23,844 bases of DNA from a virus (taxonomy: Duplodnaviria > Heunggongvirae > Uroviricota > Caudoviricetes): the IMG/VR virus record IMGVR_UViG_2531839668_000007; one strand, given 5' to 3'. Shown here in pieces: positions 11,658 to 18,977 of the stretch. Below the pieces are notes generated by a model. It worked only from the letters and a program-made list of their open reading frames with translations, was not told where the DNA came from and made no database searches. Position 1 is the first letter of the stretch; every line of letters begins with the position of its first letter. The position numbers were made by a program, and so were the translations under genes.

Positions 11658-12617
11658 ATGAAAAAAAGTGTCATCGCTGGCGTCTTTATTGCTCTGTCAT
11701 TTACCACGTGTTCAGCTATCGCGAACAGCCTTGCATTATCATTAGCAAATGATGATGCAGGGAAGTTTCAACCAATACTTAATGATATTTATGGCAATAA
11801 ACATGAAAACAGAGATGATTACTCACAAGGCTTATTTCTGGGATATAGCCACGATATCTCAGACTCGAGCCAATTATCTCTCCATATTGCGCAAGATATT
11901 TACTCTCCATCAGGCAGTAATAAAAGACACAACACAGCTGTAACTGGAGACAGAGCTTTTAGTGCATACACTCACACTGGTATTGAATGGAACTCCCTTG
12001 CGAATGACTGGATTCGCTATCGATTAGGTACTGACATAGGTGTTGTTGGCCCCGACGCAGGCGGTCAGAAAGTACAAAATAAAGCTCATGAGATTATTGG
12101 GGCAGAAAAATATCATGCATGGGATGATCAAATAGAGAATCGCTACGGTTATACTGTAAAAGGGATGCTATCCATGACACCAAGTATGGATATTTTAGGT
12201 GCTAATGTTGGATTATACCCTGAAGTTTCTGCTGTTACTGGAAACTTATTTCAATATGTAGCATATGGCGCAACCATTGCCATTGGTAATGATAAAACCT
12301 TCAATTCGGATAATGGCTTTGGTCTGCTGGCTCCCCGTGGTTTAATGCATATGTCCGATACAAGCGGATTCAAATACAAGATTTTTGCAGGTATGGAAAG
12401 ACGAGATGTCAATCGCAACTATACTCTCGAAGGAAAAACAATACAGACGAAACAAACAACAGTATCGCTAAACAAAACTGTTGATGAATATCAAGTTGGC
12501 GCAACAATTGGGTATGCACCTGTAGCCTTCACACTAGCATTTAATAAAGTAACATCAGAATTCAAGACAGGGGATGACTATTCATTTATAAATGGAGCAA
12601 TCACCTTCTTTTTTTAA
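11658..12617 (+). CDS. lpxR: Outer-membrane lipid A 3'-O-deacylase LpxR
   Basis: 319 aa; N-terminal signal peptide (MKKSVIAGVFIALSFTTCSA), C-terminal aromatic beta-barrel signature (...INGAITFFF). Matches Salmonella LpxR over its whole length as I recall it (ANDDAGKFQP, HIAQDIYSPSG, GDRAFSAY, TGDDYSFINGAITFFF). Shine-Dalgarno sequence AAGGAAG upstream; AT-rich; opposite strand to flanking phage genes. Confidence 0.85.
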   Translation: MKKSVIAGVFIALSFTTCSAIANSLALSLANDDAGKFQPILNDIYGNKHENRDDYSQGLFLGYSHDISDSSQLSLHIAQDIYSPSGSNKRHNTAVTGDRAFSAYTHTGIEWNSLANDWIRYRLGTDIGVVGPDAGGQKVQNKAHEIIGAEKYHAWDDQIENRYGYTVKGMLSMTPSMDILGANVGLYPEVSAVTGNLFQYVAYGATIAIGNDKTFNSDNGFGLLAPRGLMHMSDTSGFKYKIFAGMERRDVNRNYTLEGKTIQTKQTTVSLNKTVDEYQVGATIGYAPVAFTLAFNKVTSEFKTGDDYSFINGAITFFF

Positions 12618-12828: not shown

Positions 12829-13494
12829 TCATGCGCCTTCTCCCTGTACCTGAATCAATGTGAGGTTTCCGCAGAACACTGCGCCAGTATCGATATACAT
12901 CTGGTTGGCAAATTTGAGTGGTTTCACTGCTGGCGTATGACCAAAGATGAACGTGTCCGCGCCTTTGATTTCTTTCACGATCCCGTCTTGTGAGTTGCCG
13001 ATTCGTTCGCGGTTCCAGATTACCTGCTGAGGATCAACTGGCTTTCCAAATTCGTATTCGTTACAAGGATAATCGGCGTGGCAAATGACATATTTTTTAT
13101 CTTTGCTCACCAGTTCGATGATTAACGGAAGTTCTTCTGCTTTATGGGCAAGAACTTTAGCCAGAGTCTCTTTGTCGTAATCGAGATTAAAGAACCAGCC
13201 ACCGCCATTAAGCAGCCAGTGATTAACGTTTCCACGCTCTGATAAGCCATCAATCATCATTTGCTCATGGTTTCCACGCACAGCTCTGAACCAGGGGAAT
13301 GTGATTAATTCCAGACATTCGACGTTCTCTGTACCGCGATCAACCAAATCGCCAACCGAGATGAGCAGGTCTTTTTTGGTGTCGAATCCAATCGTATCCA
13401 GTTTGTTCATCAGGTTCGTGTAGCATCCGTGCAGGTCGCCAGCTACCCAAATATTTCGGTATTTGCTGCCATCAATTCTTTCGTAGATATTCAT
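12829..13494 (-). CDS. Lambda-type Ser/Thr protein phosphatase (lambda orf221 / PPase homolog)
   Basis: 221 aa; phosphoesterase motifs GDLHG, GDLVDRG, GNHE; near-identical to lambda phosphatase as recalled ([30 protein letters not shown]...). The ATG overlaps the ninG stop. Confidence 0.9.
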
Positions 13495-13952
13495 GCAGCC
13501 TCACTTCTGCTGTTTCGCAGGTCTTTGAGTTTCTGTTGGTACTCTGCCTTGATCGCCTTGCACTCTTCGACAGTCCAGCGATGGCGGTTATGGTTTGATT
13601 CGATTTCGTCTACTGCTTCCTGCCCGATGCGGCTAATCAGTTCGACGCGATACGGAACGAGATTTCCGCTTTTGTGCTGGTTGCACACCACGCATTGCTT
13701 GTGAATATTGCGTTCATCAAATCGGAGTTGAGGTGCCGCAGCAGTTGTCCGGTAATGTCCGGCATCCCACTGAGCAGACGTGAGCGTTCCGCACGAGATA
13801 CATGGTAAGTCGCGGTCTCTTTCTCTGATGAAGGCGTTTACGGCTTGTTGGGCTTGTTTAATCCAGTAACTGCGGGGCTTTAAGGCGAGTTTTCGAATCT
13901 TAAGTTTATCTTTCTGTTTCTGCTCCTCTCGTCGTCGTTTCTTCTCTGCTGC
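13491..13952 (-). pseudogene. ninG: ninG 3' fragment (N-terminal ~50 codons missing, no start codon)
   Basis: The minus-strand frame is open from a TAA (plus 13953-13955) and reads [153 protein letters not shown], matching lambda NinG from about residue 50 to the end as recalled. The ORF-track start at 13691 is simply the first in-frame GTG. Confidence 0.8.
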
Positions 13953-13954
13953 TT

Positions 13955-14149
13955 AACGATGAAACCATGCAGGAGATTAACACTCTGCTGATCGCCCTGG
14001 ATAAAACATGGGATGACGACTTATTGCCGCTCTGTTCCCAGATATTTCGCCGCGACATTCGCGCATCGTCAGAACTGACACAGGCCGAAGCAGTGAAAGC
14101 TCTTGGATTCCTGAAACAGAAAGCCACTGAGCAGAAGGTGGCAGCATGA
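13955..14149 (+). pseudogene. bet: bet (Red-beta) 3' fragment, last ~64 codons only
   Basis: Reads [64 protein letters not shown], matching the C-terminus of lambda Bet as recalled. Homology starts 2 nt from where ninG homology ends on the other strand. The stop overlaps the exo start as in lambda. Confidence 0.8.
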
Positions 14150-14826
14150 CACCGGACATTATCCTGCAGCGTGCCGGGATCGACGTGAGAGCTGTCGAAC
14201 AGGGAGATGATGCGTGGCACAAATTACGGCTCGGCGTCATCACAGCTTCAGAAGTTCATAACGTAATAGCAAAACCCCGCTCCGGAAAAAAGTGGCCTGA
14301 CATGAAAATGTCCTACTTCCACACCCTGCTGGCTGAGGTTTGCACCGGTGTGGCTCCGGAAGTTAATGCTAAGGCGCTGGCCTGGGGAAAACAGTACGAG
14401 AACGACGCCAGAGCCCTGTTTGAGTTTACTTCCGGCGTGAATGTTACTGAATCCCCGATCATCTATCGCGACGAAAGTATGCGCACCGCCTGCTCTCCCG
14501 ATGGTTTATGCAGTGACGGCAACGGCCTTGAACTGAAATGCCCGTTTACCTCCCGGGATTTCATGAAATTCCGGCTCGGTGGTTTCGAGGCCATAAAGTC
14601 GGATTACATGGCCCAGGTGCAGTACAGCATGTGGGTGACGCGAAAAGATGCCTGGTACTTTGCCAACTATGACCCACGAATGAAGCGTGAAGGCCTGCAT
14701 TATGTCGTGGTTGAGCGGGATGAAAATTACATGGCGAGTTTTGACGAGATGGTGCCGGAGTTCATCGAAAAAATGGACGAGGCACTGGCTGAAATTGGTT
14801 TTGTATTTGGGGAGCAATGGCGATGA
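14146..14826 (+). CDS. exo: Lambda exonuclease (Red-alpha)
   Basis: 226 aa; near-identical to lambda Exo as recalled ([40 protein letters not shown]...GFVFGEQWR). Confidence 0.9.
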
Positions 14827-15005
14827 CGCATCCTCACGATAATATCCGGGTGGGCGCGATCACTTTCGTCTACTCCATTACAAAGCGAGGCTGGGTATTT
14901 CCCGGCCTTTCTGTTATCAGAAATCCCCTGAAAGCACAGCGGCTGGCTGAGGAGATAAATAATAAACGGGGAGCTGTATGCACAAAGCATCTCCCGTTGA
15001 GTTAA
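14823..15005 (+). CDS. Small early protein, lambda orf60a-like (60 aa)
   Basis: The ATG at 14823-14825 overlaps the exo stop (ATGA) and gives 60 aa; position and size match lambda orf60a downstream of exo. The ORF-track start at 14817 is an alternative. Confidence 0.5.
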
Positions 15006-15169
15006 GAACGAGTATCGAGATGGCACATAGCCTCGCTCAAATTGGAGTCAGGTTTGTGCCAATATCAGTAGAAACAGACGAAGAATTTCATACGTTAGCC
15101 GCATCCCTTTCACAAAAGCTGGAAATGATGGTGGCGAAAGCAGAAGCAGATGAGAGAGACCAGGTATGA
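14978..15169 (+). CDS. Small early protein, lambda orf63-like (63 aa)
   Basis: 63-aa ORF overlapping the previous gene by 28 nt, as lambda orf63 overlaps orf60a; product identity inferred from position and length only. Confidence 0.45.
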   Translation: MHKASPVELRTSIEMAHSLAQIGVRFVPISVETDEEFHTLAASLSQKLEMMVAKAEADERDQV

Positions 15170-15249
15170 CAACCACTGAATGCATTTTTCTGGCAGCGGG
15201 CTTCATATTCTGTGTGCTTATGCTTGCCGACATGGGGCTTGTTCAATGA
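15166..15249 (+). CDS. Candidate 27-aa hydrophobic peptide, translationally coupled on both sides
   Basis: ATG at 15166-15168 overlaps the upstream TGA (ATGA); its own TGA at 15247-15249 overlaps the downstream ATG 15246-15248 (ATGA). Product MTTTECIFLAAGFIFCVLMLADMGLVQ is one TM-like helix. Alternative model: a 93-aa ORF from the ATG at 15180 in another frame. Confidence 0.3.
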   Translation: MTTTECIFLAAGFIFCVLMLADMGLVQ

Positions 15250-15461
15250 CACCTCAGCAAGAAAACGCCCTTCGCAGCATTGCCCGTCAGGCTAATTCTG
15301 AAATCAAAAAAGCCAGACAGCAGTTTCCGGATAAAAACGTCGATGACATTTGCCGTAGCGTACTAAAGAAGCACCGCGAAACGGTAACGCTGATGGGATT
15401 CACACCGACTCATTTAAGCCTGGCGATCGGCATGTTGAACGGCGTCTTTAAGGAACGGTGA
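15246..15461 (+). CDS. Hypothetical early-region protein (71 aa)
   Basis: ORF with a Shine-Dalgarno-like GGGG about 9 nt upstream of the ATG at 15246; hydrophilic, lysine-rich. Could instead start at 15180 (93 aa). Confidence 0.4.
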   Translation: MTPQQENALRSIARQANSEIKKARQQFPDKNVDDICRSVLKKHRETVTLMGFTPTHLSLAIGMLNGVFKER

Positions 15462-15482
15462 ACATGAAAAGCAAAATCATCA

Positions 15483-15505
15483 GGGAGCTACAGGCTCCTT
15501 TTTTA
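15483..15505 (+). terminator. Rho-independent terminator inside the early-left gene string
   Basis: GGAGC-TACAG-GCTCC followed by TTTTTTATTATT on the + strand, directly after the 15461 stop and before the TraR-like gene. Confidence 0.5.
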
Positions 15506-15559
15506 TTATTCGCATTCACCCTCAAGCGTATTAACCAACAATTCAGGGATTAATGAAAG

Positions 15560-15781
15560 ATGGCAGACATAATTGATTCAGCATCAGAAATTGAAGAATT
15601 ACAGCGCAACACAGCAATAAAAATGCGCCGCCTGAACCACCAGGCTATATCTGCCACTCATTGTTGTGAGTGTGGCGATCCGATAGATGAACGAAGACGA
15701 CTGGCCGTTCAGGGTTGTCGGACTTGTGCCAGTTGCCAGCAAGATCTGGAGCTTATCAGTAAACAGAGAGGTTCGAAGTGA
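15560..15781 (+). CDS. TraR/DksA-family C4 zinc-finger protein (73 aa)
   Basis: CCECGDPIDERRRLAVQGCRTCASCQ is a CxxC-17-CxxC arrangement with the conserved RRxLA(V)P-like core typical of phage TraR-like proteins. Confidence 0.65.
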   Translation: MADIIDSASEIEELQRNTAIKMRRLNHQAISATHCCECGDPIDERRRLAVQGCRTCASCQQDLELISKQRGSK

Positions 15782-16185
15782 GCGAAATTAACTCTCAGGC
15801 ACTGCGTGAAGCGGCAGAGAAAGCCGGTGAAGATAAGTGGCAGGCTAAAAAAATAAATGGTGATTTTTTCGTTATTCGTCACGGTAGTTATACAAGACAG
15901 CATGGCTACACATCGTATCAACCCATTGCGGAGATTGATTGTAAGCCAGTCCGGGATTTTGTTGCCAAGGCTAATCCGGCTACCGTGCTGGAATTACTGG
16001 ATGAACTGGAAGCAGCAAAAAAGCGCATTGCAGAACTGGAAGCGCGGGAAATACTGCTCCCGGAACGTAGCAGCATGCTTCATCGAACAGATTTTCACGA
16101 TGATTACCAAACGGTAATGGCATACAAAGTTTCTGAAGTCATCGATGCAATCCGCGCTACTGGCATTCGCATCAAAGGAGAGTGA
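15778..16185 (+). CDS. Ead/Ea22-like protein (135 aa)
   Basis: C-terminal coiled-coil segment NPATVLELLDELEAAKKRIAELEAREIL resembles the Ea22-like family signature as recalled. Start overlaps the TraR-like stop; its own stop is 1 nt before the next gene's ATG. Confidence 0.45.
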   Translation: MSEINSQALREAAEKAGEDKWQAKKINGDFFVIRHGSYTRQHGYTSYQPIAEIDCKPVRDFVAKANPATVLELLDELEAAKKRIAELEAREILLPERSSMLHRTDFHDDYQTVMAYKVSEVIDAIRATGIRIKGE

Positions 16186-16186
16186 G

Positions 16187-16942
16187 ATGATTCACTACCA
16201 CGGTGGGCCTATTACTCCTGATACGTGCGCAATGAGAGCATGGAAAGGGCGACATGCGTTTATCAGTTTTGCGCATTCAGGCCAGATCAATCTCGCGGCT
16301 GAATACTGTCAGTCGTTCGCGCTGGACAACGGTGCATTCACCGCCTGGAAAGCAGCTGGCAAAAACAAAATCGACTGGAGCGATTACTACGAGTTTGTTG
16401 CTCGCTGGAAGAATCACCCAGGATTCGATTTTGCCATTATCCCGGATGTTATTGATGGCGGAGAGGAGGAAAATGATGCGCTTCTGAATGAGTGGCCTCA
16501 CGGAAAACTAGCTGGCGTTCCAGTGTGGCACATGAATGAAAGTGACGAGCGATTTATTCATTTGTGCAATGAGTTTCCGCGAGTGGCTATCGGTAGTTGT
16601 GGCGACTATGACGTAAAGCGCCCAACTCTTGCGGTAGCCAGAATGAAAGACCTGATTCGTCACATTGTTGATGGGCATGGTCAGCCGGTTACGAAACTAC
16701 ATGGATTGCGCATGTTAAATCCGCTGATATTCACAAAATTACCCTTAGCCAGCGCAGATAGTACGAACGTCGCTCGAAACATCGGTATTGATAAAGCCTG
16801 GTCTGGGGCTTATGCACCTGCAAGTAAAGAGACACGCGCAGCATTAATGGTAGAACGGATTGAGGCACACAATAGCCCTGGTTCTCTTGCGTATTGTGAA
16901 CAACGCGACCGCTTTGAAATGCAATTGCAACTAGCAGTTTAA
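16187..16942 (+). CDS. Candidate TGT-fold base-exchange enzyme (DpdA-like, 251 aa) lacking a zinc subdomain
   Basis: ATG at 16187 with Shine-Dalgarno AGGAG at 16175-16179. Four segments line up in order and spacing with remembered E. coli Tgt motifs: LDNGAF with TDSGGF (catalytic Asp region), DFAIIPD with DIVMIFD, RVAIGSCGD with GYAVGGLAVGE, and LHGLRM...ADSTNVARNIG with YLMGVG...FDCVMPTRNARNG. No CxCxxC...H zinc site. Assignment is by eye, not by search. Confidence 0.4.
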   Translation: MIHYHGGPITPDTCAMRAWKGRHAFISFAHSGQINLAAEYCQSFALDNGAFTAWKAAGKNKIDWSDYYEFVARWKNHPGFDFAIIPDVIDGGEEENDALLNEWPHGKLAGVPVWHMNESDERFIHLCNEFPRVAIGSCGDYDVKRPTLAVARMKDLIRHIVDGHGQPVTKLHGLRMLNPLIFTKLPLASADSTNVARNIGIDKAWSGAYAPASKETRAALMVERIEAHNSPGSLAYCEQRDRFEMQLQLAV

Positions 16943-16952
16943 GGACTAACAA

Positions 16953-17528
16953 ATGACCACTATTACCAAAGAACGTATTGAATTGTTCATTAAAAATCCG
17001 CTTGAAAACGGGCTTACTCGTGGCGAACAAATGGAACTGGCACGAATTGCACTGGCATCACTGGGAGCAGAACCTGTAAGCCAAACTTACAACTTGCCAG
17101 AATTAATCGAAGGCATGGAGGTTTCCATTGATGTAAGCACTTGTGATGCGGATTTAGGTAATCGCTATTTCGGTACCGTCACCGAGGCGTTAGAACTTGA
17201 TACTGCCAAGAATGGTTACATCCTCCTGGTTCAGGACGCAGAGCCAAACTTCGATATAAATGGCAATTCTCCGGTAACTCCGGATGGTTGGGTTATAGTG
17301 CCGAAGAAACTAACCGCTGAGAACGGCGCTAAGGGTGTGCTATCCGGTGAATTTTCAGAAACTACGTTTATAAGCTGCCCGGAATGCTTTGGTGATGATG
17401 ATTGCGAAACTTGTGACGGCAGCGGAAGAATCGAAATCAAGGTTCCAGTCAGTTGGACAACTATCAAAACTATTTGGGCTAAAGGGTGTGAGTACTTTTC
17501 AATAGTAGCACCGCAGCAAGATGGGTGA
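16953..17528 (+). CDS. Hypothetical protein with C-terminal zinc-ribbon (191 aa)
   Basis: CPECFGDDDCETCDGSG is a CxxC-x7-CxxC motif near the C-terminus; begins 11 nt after the TGT-like stop; no family recognised. Confidence 0.5.
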   Translation: MTTITKERIELFIKNPLENGLTRGEQMELARIALASLGAEPVSQTYNLPELIEGMEVSIDVSTCDADLGNRYFGTVTEALELDTAKNGYILLVQDAEPNFDINGNSPVTPDGWVIVPKKLTAENGAKGVLSGEFSETTFISCPECFGDDDCETCDGSGRIEIKVPVSWTTIKTIWAKGCEYFSIVAPQQDG

Positions 17529-17654: not shown

Positions 17655-17897
17655 ATGTTCAAACGCTGCATCACCAAGTGTGGAAGCACACCTGACATCC
17701 AAGCTTTTATTAATGAAGATGGTAAGCTTGTTGTTGAGAGGAGTGGTCCTTTTATTAGCAAACAACTTATCATTACCTCTCCAGCGGAGATGGCCGGGGA
17801 ATGGATAGTTTCTGAACCAGAGGAGTTGCACATCCCGCTTCCTTATGGCCCTCAGGGACTGATTTATAACCGTTATGTTCAGAAGGAGGCGGGTTGA
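17655..17897 (+). CDS. Hypothetical small protein (80 aa)
   Basis: ATG at 17655 preceded by a GGGGGGA Shine-Dalgarno-like sequence (the ORF-track start at 17613 is further upstream); a perfect TATAAT at 17619-17624 lies upstream. No family recognised. Confidence 0.4.
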   Translation: MFKRCITKCGSTPDIQAFINEDGKLVVERSGPFISKQLIITSPAEMAGEWIVSEPEELHIPLPYGPQGLIYNRYVQKEAG

Positions 17898-18176
17898 CAA
17901 TGTCAGGCATAACATCGCCGAGAAATCGAAAGAAAAACAGAACAAGGTAAACGTTGACCTTGCAGCATCAGGCATGGAGTACAGAGAGCGCCTTAACATA
18001 CCTGTTATCACTGAGCAGGTATCATGAGAGCAACCTGAGCACTCACGCGAGTATTTCATGGAGCGCATCAGATACTATCGCGAGCAGTCGTTAAACATGC
18101 CCAAGGGAAGCAACCCATGGTATATCGATATGGATGAACAGAACGCCAAGAAGTAAACGCAATTTGAACGAATGCG

Positions 18177-18202
18177 AACCCGCCGAGTGCGGGTTTTCTT
18201 TT
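18177..18202 (+). terminator. Rho-independent terminator just left of the IS insertion
   Basis: ACCCGC-CGAGT-GCGGGT followed by TTTCTTTTAT on the + strand. Confidence 0.5.
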
Positions 18203-18238
18203 ATCTGAACTCGCTACGGCGAGTTTTGTTTTATGGCG

Positions 18239-18246
18239 ATGATAAA
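18239..18246. repeat. Target site duplication (left copy) ATGATAAA
   Basis: The 8 bp immediately outside the left inverted repeat are identical to the 8 bp immediately outside the right inverted repeat (20946-20953). Confidence 0.85.
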
Positions 18247-18299
18247 GTAACCGGCTCATTTAAACCGTCTGGTCTGTTTCCTCCGGCTCTACAAAAATA

Positions 18300-18977
18300 A
18301 TGTCCATCATTTTTAATGGACACTATCGTATGAAACACCGGACCTGGATCACTGAAGCTTTACGTCTTCACTTTGAAGAACATTTACCCCGGGTTGTGGC
18401 CGGGCGTCGCCTGGGTGTACCAAAATCAACAGTTTGTAGTATGTTCGTGCGCTTTCGGAGAGCTGGCCTTTCGTGGCCTTTGCCCGCAGGCATGTCGGAG
18501 CAGGAACTTGATGCCTGCCTTTACGGACAATTTTCCACGGTACCAGTCGTACGTCCTGAAAGCACCGTTATATCCGAAGCCCCCGTGGTAAAAAAACGTC
18601 CCCGGCGGCCCAACTTCCCTTATGAGTTTAAAATCGCCTTAGTGGAGCAGTCACTGCAGCCCGGAGCCTGTGTGGCGCAGATCGCCCGGGAAAACGGAAT
18701 CAACGATAACCTGCTCTTCAACTGGCGCCATCAATACCGGAAAGGTGGCCTGCTGCCTTCCGGAAAAAATATGCCGGCACTGCTTCCCGTGACGTTAACG
18801 CCGGAGCCGGATAATAAAATCCCGGCCCCCGCACAGGAACCAGAGCAGATAAATACACCGTCCGACAGTCTGTGTTGTGAGCTGATTCTGCCGGCCGGAA
18901 CTCTCAGGCTTAAAGGTAAACTGACGCCGGCGTTATTACAGACACTTATCCGCGAAATGAAAGGGAGCAGCCACTGA
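18300..18977 (+). CDS. tnpA: IS66-family accessory protein TnpA (orfA)
   Basis: The C-terminal half (RRPNFPYEFKIALVEQSLQPGACVAQIARENGINDNLLFNWRHQYRKG) has the helix-turn-helix region typical of IS66 orfA. The true start may be internal: the N-terminal ~75 aa carry an IS21-like motif (LSWPLPAGMSEQELDACLY) and may not be translated. The stop overlaps the tnpB ATG. Confidence 0.65.
   Translation: MSIIFNGHYRMKHRTWITEALRLHFEEHLPRVVAGRRLGVPKSTVCSMFVRFRRAGLSWPLPAGMSEQELDACLYGQFSTVPVVRPESTVISEAPVVKKRPRRPNFPYEFKIALVEQSLQPGACVAQIARENGINDNLLFNWRHQYRKGGLLPSGKNMPALLPVTLTPEPDNKIPAPAQEPEQINTPSDSLCCELILPAGTLRLKGKLTPALLQTLIREMKGSSH

Follow-up and report, generated by a model that had tools for sequence, protein, structure and literature searches.

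The IMG/VR virus record IMGVR_UViG_2531839668_000007 (Caudoviricetes), whose 23,844 nucleotides (nt) are the whole stretch of DNA analysed here and are called the window below, holds a lambda-type prophage in the attLambda site of an Escherichia coli chromosome, with the integrase gene at 21356-22426 and ybhC starting at 22561. The + strand of the window runs in the direction of the leftward early operon, and the theme of this report is the interval at 15482-17528, where a terminator-like hairpin is followed by four genes, all on that strand: orf73 (gene 1), a member of the Ea22 family (gene 2), a small DpdA-like guanine transglycosylase (gene 3), and a patchwork zinc-finger protein (gene 4). 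A sequence-only reading had described these as an accessory module with no counterparts in lambda, set off by a terminator and tightly packed enough to suggest one functional unit, in a stretch known for defence and anti-defence cargo. The features on which the argument turns, with gene 3 given from its homolog-supported start and not from that of the mechanical open reading frame (ORF), are as follows.

14887-14909, + strand: predicted t1-lambda hairpin inside orf60a (terminator scan; identical to t1-lambda in PMC4195576, Table 4).
15482-15506, + strand: predicted t2-lambda, an intrinsic-terminator-like hairpin with a T tract between orf61 and orf73 (terminator scan, RNAfold, lambda alignment).
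15560-15781, + strand: gene 1, orf73, a TraR/DksA-type C4 zinc finger protein of 73 amino acids (aa) (tblastn to lambda, PF01258, phrog_54).
15778-16185, + strand: gene 2, an Ead/Ea22-family variant of 135 aa (PF13935, phrog_1667, blastp to lambda Ea22).
16187-16942, + strand: gene 3, a predicted minimal stand-alone DpdA-like guanine transglycosylase of 251 aa, in the tRNA-guanine transglycosylase (TGT) superfamily and with no zinc subdomain (phrog_887, homologs).
16953-17528, + strand: gene 4, a patchwork Ea-type protein of 191 aa (phrog_60, 1e-41).
18191-18246, + strand: resumption of lambda homology upstream of the lambdap35 homolog (blastn to lambda, 92.9% over 56 nt).

Much of this interval is phage lambda. 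The lambda genome (NC_001416, 32221-30354) matches the window at 13953-15819 with 96.9% identity (blastn, tblastn), over a stretch that takes in the end of bet, exo, orf60a, orf63, orf61, the t2 hairpin, orf73 and the first ~15 codons of ea22, and the order orf60a-orf63-orf61-orf73-ea22 has already been published for lambda (PMC4195576). Identity breaks at ~15820-15826, inside gene 2, at a mosaic junction, and from there (~15826) to 18191 some 2.4 kilobases (kb) stand in place of the body of lambda ea22 and ea8.5 (~1.0 kb). This replacement contains another Ea22 body, the genes for the DpdA-like and zinc-finger Ea-type proteins, an ORF of family phrog_9613 and a theta-like pseudogene. The composition profile has no step in GC content at the mosaic joints, and an Rfam scan of the whole window returned no family reaching its gathering score. 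The label non-lambda is mistaken for the terminator, orf73 and the start of ea22, and the statement that the four genes lack lambda counterparts is contradicted by blastn and tblastn, which identify the hairpin, gene 1 and the opening part of gene 2 as lambda sequence, gene 2 also sitting in the ea22 slot.

The terminator reported at 15483-15505 is indeed present, at 15482-15506, where a GC-containing hairpin is directly followed by a U tract on the transcribed strand, as in rho-independent terminators. The hairpin (15482-15500) has an 8-bp stem and a 3-nt loop and is followed by TTTTTTATTATT in the terminator scan; in RNAfold it folds at -10.2 kcal/mol (z = -2.9), with equally good folding in 1 of 200 shuffles. 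Its proposed role as the edge of an accessory module fares differently, since the hairpin, 100% identical base for base in phage lambda, is lambda's own t2-lambda, published as a predicted terminator (Bloch et al., 2014), 3′ of which the mRNA of orf73, ea22 and ea8.5 is lower; its terminator function is inferred from this lower downstream mRNA, and a promoter is predicted to overlap it (PMC4195576). We rejected the hairpin as a module boundary or foreign-DNA edge because lambda sequence lies on both sides of it, up to ~15820. The t1-lambda hairpin inside orf60a likewise places the interval in a lambda-type leftward operon. It is presumably lambda tL3, on which a literature search gave no usable coordinates, and we take plasmid pKD46 to carry lambda 31088-33241, tL3 included.

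Gene 1 shares 71 of its 73 residues with lambda Orf73 (97.3% identity over the full 73 residues in tblastn), in flanking DNA collinear with lambda and at the orf73 position, between orf61 and the ea22-type gene. It matches PF01258 (5e-9; 36.4 bits against a cut-off of 24.9), which bears out the earlier call of a TraR-like zinc finger, and phrog_54 (2e-25), with TIGR02419 at 55.6 bits slightly under its cut-off of 59.7. Its cysteines are Cys35/36/38 and Cys53/56/59, and its N-terminus, MADIIDSASE, keeps D3 and D6, the positions of the D3A/D6A variant described for lambda Orf73 (PMC9239242). By these measures gene 1 is the ortholog of lambda Orf73, a TraR homolog that binds RNA polymerase and acts as an inhibitor at rRNA and ribosomal-protein promoters, makes the host grow more slowly and increases burst size (PMC9239242), and at 97% identity gene 1 would be expected to bind the secondary channel of RNA polymerase as TraR does, shut the same promoters and raise burst size. 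Gene 2, which opens with a GTG and shares 4 nt with the end of gene 1, matches PF13935 (2.6e-17; 64.1 bits against a cut-off of 27), in agreement with its earlier description as Ea22-like, and phrog_1667 over its full length (2e-56). In blastp it agrees with lambda Ea22 in its opening 14 residues, in the PxxVLELLDE with which the coiled coil begins and in its final 7 residues (GIRIKGE), the body between these parts being different, and at the DNA level 29 nt (16160-16188) match the 3′ end of lambda ea22 at 100%. Past the coiled-coil start only GIRIKGE matches the C-terminal domain of lambda Ea22 solved by nuclear magnetic resonance, so gene 2 is a family member with a different C-terminal cassette; it may be viewed as a variant of the pro-lysogenic Ea22 family, and a Protein Data Bank (PDB) sequence search with it gave nothing meaningful.

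Gene 4, which starts after a 10-nt spacer from gene 3, is composed of an adapter (residues 1-40, MTTITKERIELF...ELARIALASLEA), a middle module, a GNSPVTPDGW linker and a C-terminal module with CPECFGDDDCETCDGSG, a single Cys4 site; as a Cys4 CxxC...CxxC protein it accords with the zinc ribbon that had been called. Residues 41-191 form a near-invariant cassette of 150 aa that elsewhere in E. coli follows five or more different N-termini, Ead/Ea22 and DUF550/DUF551 types among them, and gene 4 would be an Ea-type adapter joined to this zinc-finger cassette. The adapter is found on other proteins as well: it begins the gene that follows gene 3 in E. coli O121 RM8352, avian pathogenic E. coli (APEC) O78 and a plasmid-borne copy, where what comes next is a DUF550 dATP/dGTP pyrophosphohydrolase and then a DUF551-like end, and the DUF550-type eaA of Salmonella phage BTP1 opens with the adapter's MTTITKE and diverges afterwards. 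The linker, as GNSPV(T/I)PDGW, recurs between Ea-type modules, lambdoid and P22-like phages building their Ea-type proteins from cassettes with conserved linkers between them (16953-17528 here; 3267-4064 in locus L040; 4767-5732 in locus L035). Gene 4 has no match in Pfam (E up to 0.1), NCBIfam (E up to 0.01) or PADLOC, a PDB sequence search gave nothing meaningful, and its AlphaFold2 (AF2) model, with a predicted local distance difference test (pLDDT) of 35 and a predicted template modelling score (pTM) of 0.19, is unusable because its homologs are nearly identical. Genes of this type are often split wrongly by the Prokaryotic Genome Annotation Pipeline (PGAP) into a pseudogene and a shorter coding sequence.

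Four conserved boundary sequences can be recognized: the first ~45 nt of ea22, its last 29 nt, the adapter of gene 4 (~40 codons) and the GNSPV(T/I)PDGW linker. Homologous recombination at such short sequences would have put the four cassettes side by side, and how often they keep company elsewhere was surveyed in three samples. Among 5,426 complete E. coli genomes, some portion of the run from gene 1 to gene 3, chiefly orf73 and Ea22-like sequence, occurs in 3,566, gene 3 in 303 (~5.6%; 204 at ≥95% identity), genes 1-3 contiguously in 116 and all four genes in 29, all near-identical, while the C-terminal part of gene 4 is present at full length in 47 and in pieces, fused to other N-termini, in 668. 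Among 80 viral contigs whose gene 3 is at least 81% identical to this one, and which are therefore close relatives, 26 have an Ea22-like gene within 4 kb of gene 3, 23 the adapter (within 700 nt downstream), 13 a nearby orf73, six the zinc module and four the complete set; in half (40/80), none of these families adjoins gene 3. The third sample, made up of 32 other-species loci in Erwinia, Pantoea, Yersinia, Serratia-like genera, Proteus, Aeromonas and several metagenome-assembled genomes (MAGs), has no conserved neighbour family and no Ea22-like gene or full gene 4 beside gene 3; a single piece of the set is nearby in just two, with the zinc module of gene 4 upstream in an Erwinia locus (L006) and a TraR gene 1.7 kb downstream in another (L021).

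Independent occurrence of the four genes with no conserved linkage, the outcome that the sequence-only reading had itself set against its proposal, is what the linkage comparison gave in E. coli, in the other species and on viral contigs alike, and the claim of one functional unit falls with it. We think it probable, with good though not complete confidence, that the region is an ordinary mosaic exo-xis stretch of a lambda-type prophage in which four early-gene cassettes are independent of one another and do not form one system; the interval would then be the distal, exo-xis part of a leftward early operon running exo, orf60a, orf63, orf61, t2, orf73, ea22-type gene, cargo, xis, int. What weighs against full independence is the presence of an Ea22-like gene upstream of gene 3 in about one third of the close viral relatives (26/80) and in BTP1, which may reflect some preferential pairing. 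The association of Ea22, gene 3 and adapter is confined to lambda- and P22-like backbones, and, being partial and coinciding with the conserved joints, it is as recombination at boundary sequences would produce.

That the four genes are instead one co-transcribed, co-functional defence or anti-defence module, not of lambda origin and delimited by a terminator of its own, we regard as very improbable. The packing that suggested it is real, with a 4-nt overlap, a 1-base gap and a 10-nt spacer between successive genes, so that stops and starts overlap or nearly abut, but such packing is usual throughout the lambda leftward operon, where exo, orf60a and orf63 overlap likewise. A module might also be read from the four-gene block kept at 99.6-100% identity in 29 E. 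coli genomes, yet these have a near-identical backbone and represent one lineage and not independent co-selection; and although genes 1-3 are contiguous in 116 genomes, and BTP1 has the same order of Ea22-like gene, gene 3 and adapter-bearing gene, gene 3 is found in 303 genomes, mostly with another fourth gene. Lambda itself, moreover, supplies the terminator, gene 1 and the first part of gene 2, gene 3 has unrelated neighbours in the 32 other-species loci and none of these families beside it in 40 of the 80 viral contigs, and PADLOC (E up to 0.01) matched none of the six proteins searched, which included those of all four genes. Equally hard to credit is a pairing restricted to gene 3 and the adapter-bearing gene downstream of it, zinc-finger or DUF550, which would target gene 3 to DNA or adjust the dGTP pool. 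The same 10-nt spacing and adapter do follow gene 3 in E. coli O121, APEC O78, the plasmid-borne copy and Salmonella BTP1, the adapter lies no more than 700 nt downstream in 23 of the 80 viral contigs, and a zinc-module homolog stands just upstream of gene 3 in Erwinia L006. Against this, the downstream cassette varies (zinc finger, DUF550 with DUF551, or none) and is far commoner without gene 3 (pieces in 668 genomes, gene 3 in 303), DUF550 is near gene 3 in only 2 of the 32 other-species loci, and a shared adapter is expected from boundary recombination whether or not the genes cooperate.

Gene 3 is the cassette of residual interest. Its ATG lies one base after the stop of gene 2, and its start is placed at 16187, not at the mechanical 16145, because the RefSeq protein and all homologs begin MIHYHGGP. 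It matches phrog_887, 'queuine tRNA-ribosyltransferase', at 2e-103, in support of the earlier TGT-like call. The family is large: clustering at 90% identity gives no fewer than 7,855 clusters, a minimum figure because scoring covered only 8,000 candidates, and there are 813 representatives at 50% identity; relatives were found by tblastn in 132 phage genome records. Identity to gene 3 is 93% in Salmonella phages BTP1, SPN3UB and S135, 68% in Shigella phage SfI and coliphage Eeyore, 38% in Salmonella phage SEN1, 36% in Salmonella phage 7-11 (E = 6e-33, blastp) and ~25% in the DpdA of the Queuovirinae-like phages Iggy and Vid5. The proteins of BTP1, SPN3UB, SfI, SEN1 and 7-11 are tabulated as DpdA, in phages with DpdA but no preQ0 pathway (Hutinet et al., 2019, Supplementary Data 1); the SfI gene retrieved here, YP_009147480, has the accession given in that table, which also lists HK106, whose protein lies outside the present comparison. 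Going by these identities, the gene 3 family is one already catalogued as a 'DpdA-only' phage group (Hutinet et al., 2019), and a literature search on DpdA with 'lambdoid' returned no paper.

A profile of the family aligns in hhalign with the DpdA of Iggy, a phage with 2′-deoxy-preQ0 (dPreQ0) in its DNA, at 97% probability (E = 1.3e-10), LDNGAF falling on LDSGAF and SADST on SCDSS. Across 49 members sharing 21-68% identity, D47, H172, S189, D191 and S192 are invariant and D87, H115 and G136 at least 90% conserved. The active site of Salmonella DpdA consists of D95 (with F99 in D95-x3-F99), D130, H181 and D256 (PMC10164549), and D47-x3-F51 of gene 3 mirrors D95-x3-F99 of structure 7UI4, a correspondence by motif and spacing and not by superposition. 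Judged from this motif and spacing, gene 3 appears to keep the Asp/Asp/His/Asp set of DpdA and the tRNA-guanine transglycosylases. The protein ends 60 residues past the nucleophile. Its AF2 model (pLDDT 74.5) is a predicted alpha/beta barrel, for which Foldseek against the PDB returns only generic TIM barrels (template modelling score, TM, 0.3-0.5).

The neighbours of gene 3 homologs in other taxa offer a second line of evidence. In a Chloroflexia MAG (L033) and in Caulobacter phage DMCA the gene directly upstream encodes QueD, an Erwinia prophage (L007) has a YhhQ/Vut-family transporter upstream, and DNA methyltransferases (Dam, MT-A70, D12, C5, N4/N6) adjoin the homolog in 7 of the 32 loci (L016, L017, L019, L021, L027, L032 and L033). 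These neighbours agree with a role in DNA modification fed by preQ0 (7-cyano-7-deazaguanine), and suggest what may be a recurrent 'DNA-modification corner' in prophage early regions. A PP-loop protein resembling 3′-phosphoadenosine-5′-phosphosulfate (PAPS) reductase sometimes adjoins gene 3 homologs too, in a set of loci that also takes in L026 and L044. GenBank OR850331.1, 1,719 bp labelled 'Staphylococcus phage SA 1298 Kay', has a copy with 93% protein identity to the enterobacterial one and is most likely a mislabelled or contaminant sequence. The 111-kb plasmid pSM107_MCR (NZ_CP130669.1, L042), whose name suggests carriage of mcr, has a bet-exo-orf60a-orf63-orf61-orf73-Ea22-DpdA-DUF550-xis-int stretch, which implies a lambdoid segment integrated into, or recombined with, the plasmid.

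No que genes are present in the window, or in the prophages of E. coli IAI1 and FORC 064; E. coli itself has queC, queD, queE and folE. The hosts of DpdA-only phages have the queuosine pathway, and the DpdA of phage 9g alone puts dPreQ0 into plasmids in E. coli at 0.03-0.3% of G (Hutinet et al., 2019). Whether gene 3 inserts 7-deazaguanine into DNA seems to us, on the sequence evidence above, evenly balanced. If it does, it would act early in lytic growth, flipping guanines out of double-stranded phage DNA and exchanging them for preQ0 supplied by the host QueCDE/FolE pathway, through a covalent intermediate between Asp191 and the deoxyribose and with Asp47 as acid/base; the outcome would be sparse 7-deazaguanine marks in phage DNA that blunt restriction in the next host. 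An anti-restriction role for gene 3 is plausible in these terms, and the general point of the sequence-only reading, that the exo-xis stretch is a hotspot for such cargo, holds.

A number of results weigh against this assignment. The structural zinc site CxCxxC...H was not found in gene 3, and no cysteine is conserved in the family alignments, the site being a defining feature of bacterial DpdA and TGT, to which the comparison extends. The insertions conserved in bacterial DpdA and TGT are not in gene 3 either; Pfam (TGT), NCBIfam and PADLOC gave no match to it, neither the single protein nor a 41-sequence profile matched TGT or DpdA among PDB sequences, and hhalign gave no match between the family profile and E. 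coli Tgt (probability 0.8%). In phage 7-11, lytic and the sole gamma-proteobacterial singleton phage tested, dADG, or 2′-deoxy-7-amido-7-deazaguanosine, makes up only 0.02% of G, and Mycobacterium phage Orion has none (Hutinet et al., 2019). Such results leave some room for a TGT-fold enzyme with a substrate other than DNA, be it a protein N-terminus as for Cap10, tRNA or free 7-deazapurines, whose use might deplete or oppose host immunity based on deazaguanine, or for a binder that is not catalytic. Alongside the missing zinc subdomain and the missing DNA-binding insertions of bacterial DpdA, it can be said for this alternative that singleton DpdAs form separate clusters, may have diverged in function, and showed little or no modification where tested (Hutinet et al., 2019). 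We nevertheless consider it unlikely: no Cap9/QueC-like or CD-NTase gene is nearby and PADLOC gave no match, the similarity is to DpdAs of phages with proven dPreQ0 DNA and not to Cap10, and the methyltransferase, QueD and YhhQ neighbours in other taxa fit DNA modification fed by preQ0, while the strict retention of the Asp/Asp/His/Asp set speaks against a non-catalytic protein. It is about as doubtful that the minimal zinc-less DpdA of the lambdoid and P22-like exo-xis slot is a functionally distinct transglycosylase, one that marks specific motifs in phage DNA with preQ0 from the host and without a partner, acts on a non-DNA substrate as Cap10 does, or counters 7-deazaguanine-dependent host immunity.

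The prophage in which these genes lie is a defective, decayed remnant. A truncated ninG (13491-13952, - strand) is joined head-to-head to the last ~65 codons of bet (13953-14149), at a junction that is 100% identical in FORC 064, O157:H16 98-3133, BA92 and others and has a related form in O157:H7 strains; the window has no pL, N, repressor/immunity region or replication genes, and its tail, terminase and lysozyme genes are fragments. The prophage of E. coli IAI1 has the same four genes (99.8%) and retains kil-gam-bet-exo, the repressor and the replication genes. In the present copy the four genes are intact, but their normal drive has probably been lost: with pL, N, repressor and replication genes missing, they are probably not expressed, or expressed from no more than the weak promoter predicted to overlap t2.

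The remnant also carries genes for type III effectors, namely an nleH1-like kinase (1-891, cut by the window edge), nleC (1708-2727, Peptidase_M85) and nleB2 (2761-3741, SseK/NleB), and one for an LpxR lipid A deacylase (11658-12617). On the 3′ side of gene 4 follow the small conserved ORF of phrog_9613 (17655-17897) and a pseudogene resembling DNA polymerase III theta (HolE/HOT), with an internal stop (17875-18156), a second theta-like pseudogene being present at another place in the IAI1 prophage. An IS66-family element (18247-20945; ORFs 18300-18977, 18977-19324 and 19344-20915) separates the ea cargo from xis; its terminal inverted repeats are imperfect, a target duplication of 8 bp, ATGATAAA, flanks it at 18239-18246 and 20946-20953, and it is absent from the same site in FORC 064 and IAI1.

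Viewed as a module, then, the region is textbook lambdoid mosaicism with visible recombination joints, and its interest resides in gene 3, a minimal DpdA of a kind very common as a stand-alone protein in temperate enterobacterial phages, among them BTP1 of Salmonella ST313 and numerous prophages of Shiga toxin-producing and enteropathogenic E. coli (STEC/EPEC). Should it load host preQ0, temperate coliphages would carry a cheap, one-gene anti-restriction mark, and prophage induction could leave 7-deazaguanine in DNA, which would be relevant to restriction, to type IV systems that sense such marks and to nanopore base-calling.

Among known systems, one misleading comparison comes from RefSeq, its name for gene 4 being 'molecular chaperone DnaJ' (in some genomes the gene is split into a pseudogene and a shorter coding sequence). 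The likeness to the cysteine-rich domain of DnaJ is limited to one CxxCxGxG motif (CETCDGSG), preceded by CPECFGDD. Gene 4 has no J domain, no Pfam DnaJ_CXXCXGXG or NCBIfam match, and one Cys4 centre where DnaJ has two; it is an Ea-type modular phage protein, and on these grounds we rejected it as a DnaJ chaperone. The closest relative of the interval as a whole is the exo-xis stretch of phage lambda, with which it agrees in the order of the genes and their place between exo and xis, in DNA that is 97% identical up to and including orf73, in t1 and t2 hairpins without a difference, and in having Orf73 as gene 1 and an Ea22-family protein in the ea22 slot as gene 2, and from which it differs in having ~2.4 kb of other genes where lambda has the ea22 body and ea8.5 (~1.0 kb).

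For gene 3, Cap10 of type IV CBASS (cyclic-oligonucleotide-based antiphage signalling systems; 9NTN) is a distant comparison, at 10% identity and without its Cap9 and CD-NTase partners or defence-island context here; Cap10 modifies protein, and there is no sign of a protein substrate for gene 3. Bacterial DpdA (Salmonella Montevideo, 7UI4) and TGT resemble gene 3 in predicted chemistry, sharing an acid/base Asp with a Phe four residues on, an Asp and a His for base recognition and an Asp nucleophile, but at ~375-413 aa they are much longer than the 251 aa of gene 3, which lacks their CxCxxC...H site and the DpdA insertions. Bacterial DpdA also differs in having the DpdB ATPase partner and dpd restriction genes, which are absent beside gene 3, and we rejected placement of gene 3 in a bacterial dpd restriction-modification island, there being no dpdB-K genes and the context being that of a prophage. 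The best match is the stand-alone DpdA of 'group 3' (Hutinet et al., 2019): like gene 3 it is a singleton in phages with no preQ0 genes of their own and hosts with a queuosine pathway, and nothing substantive sets the two apart, the 7-11 relative being that of a lytic phage, while both belong to the early leftward operon of temperate phages, of whose DpdA gene 3 would be another allele.

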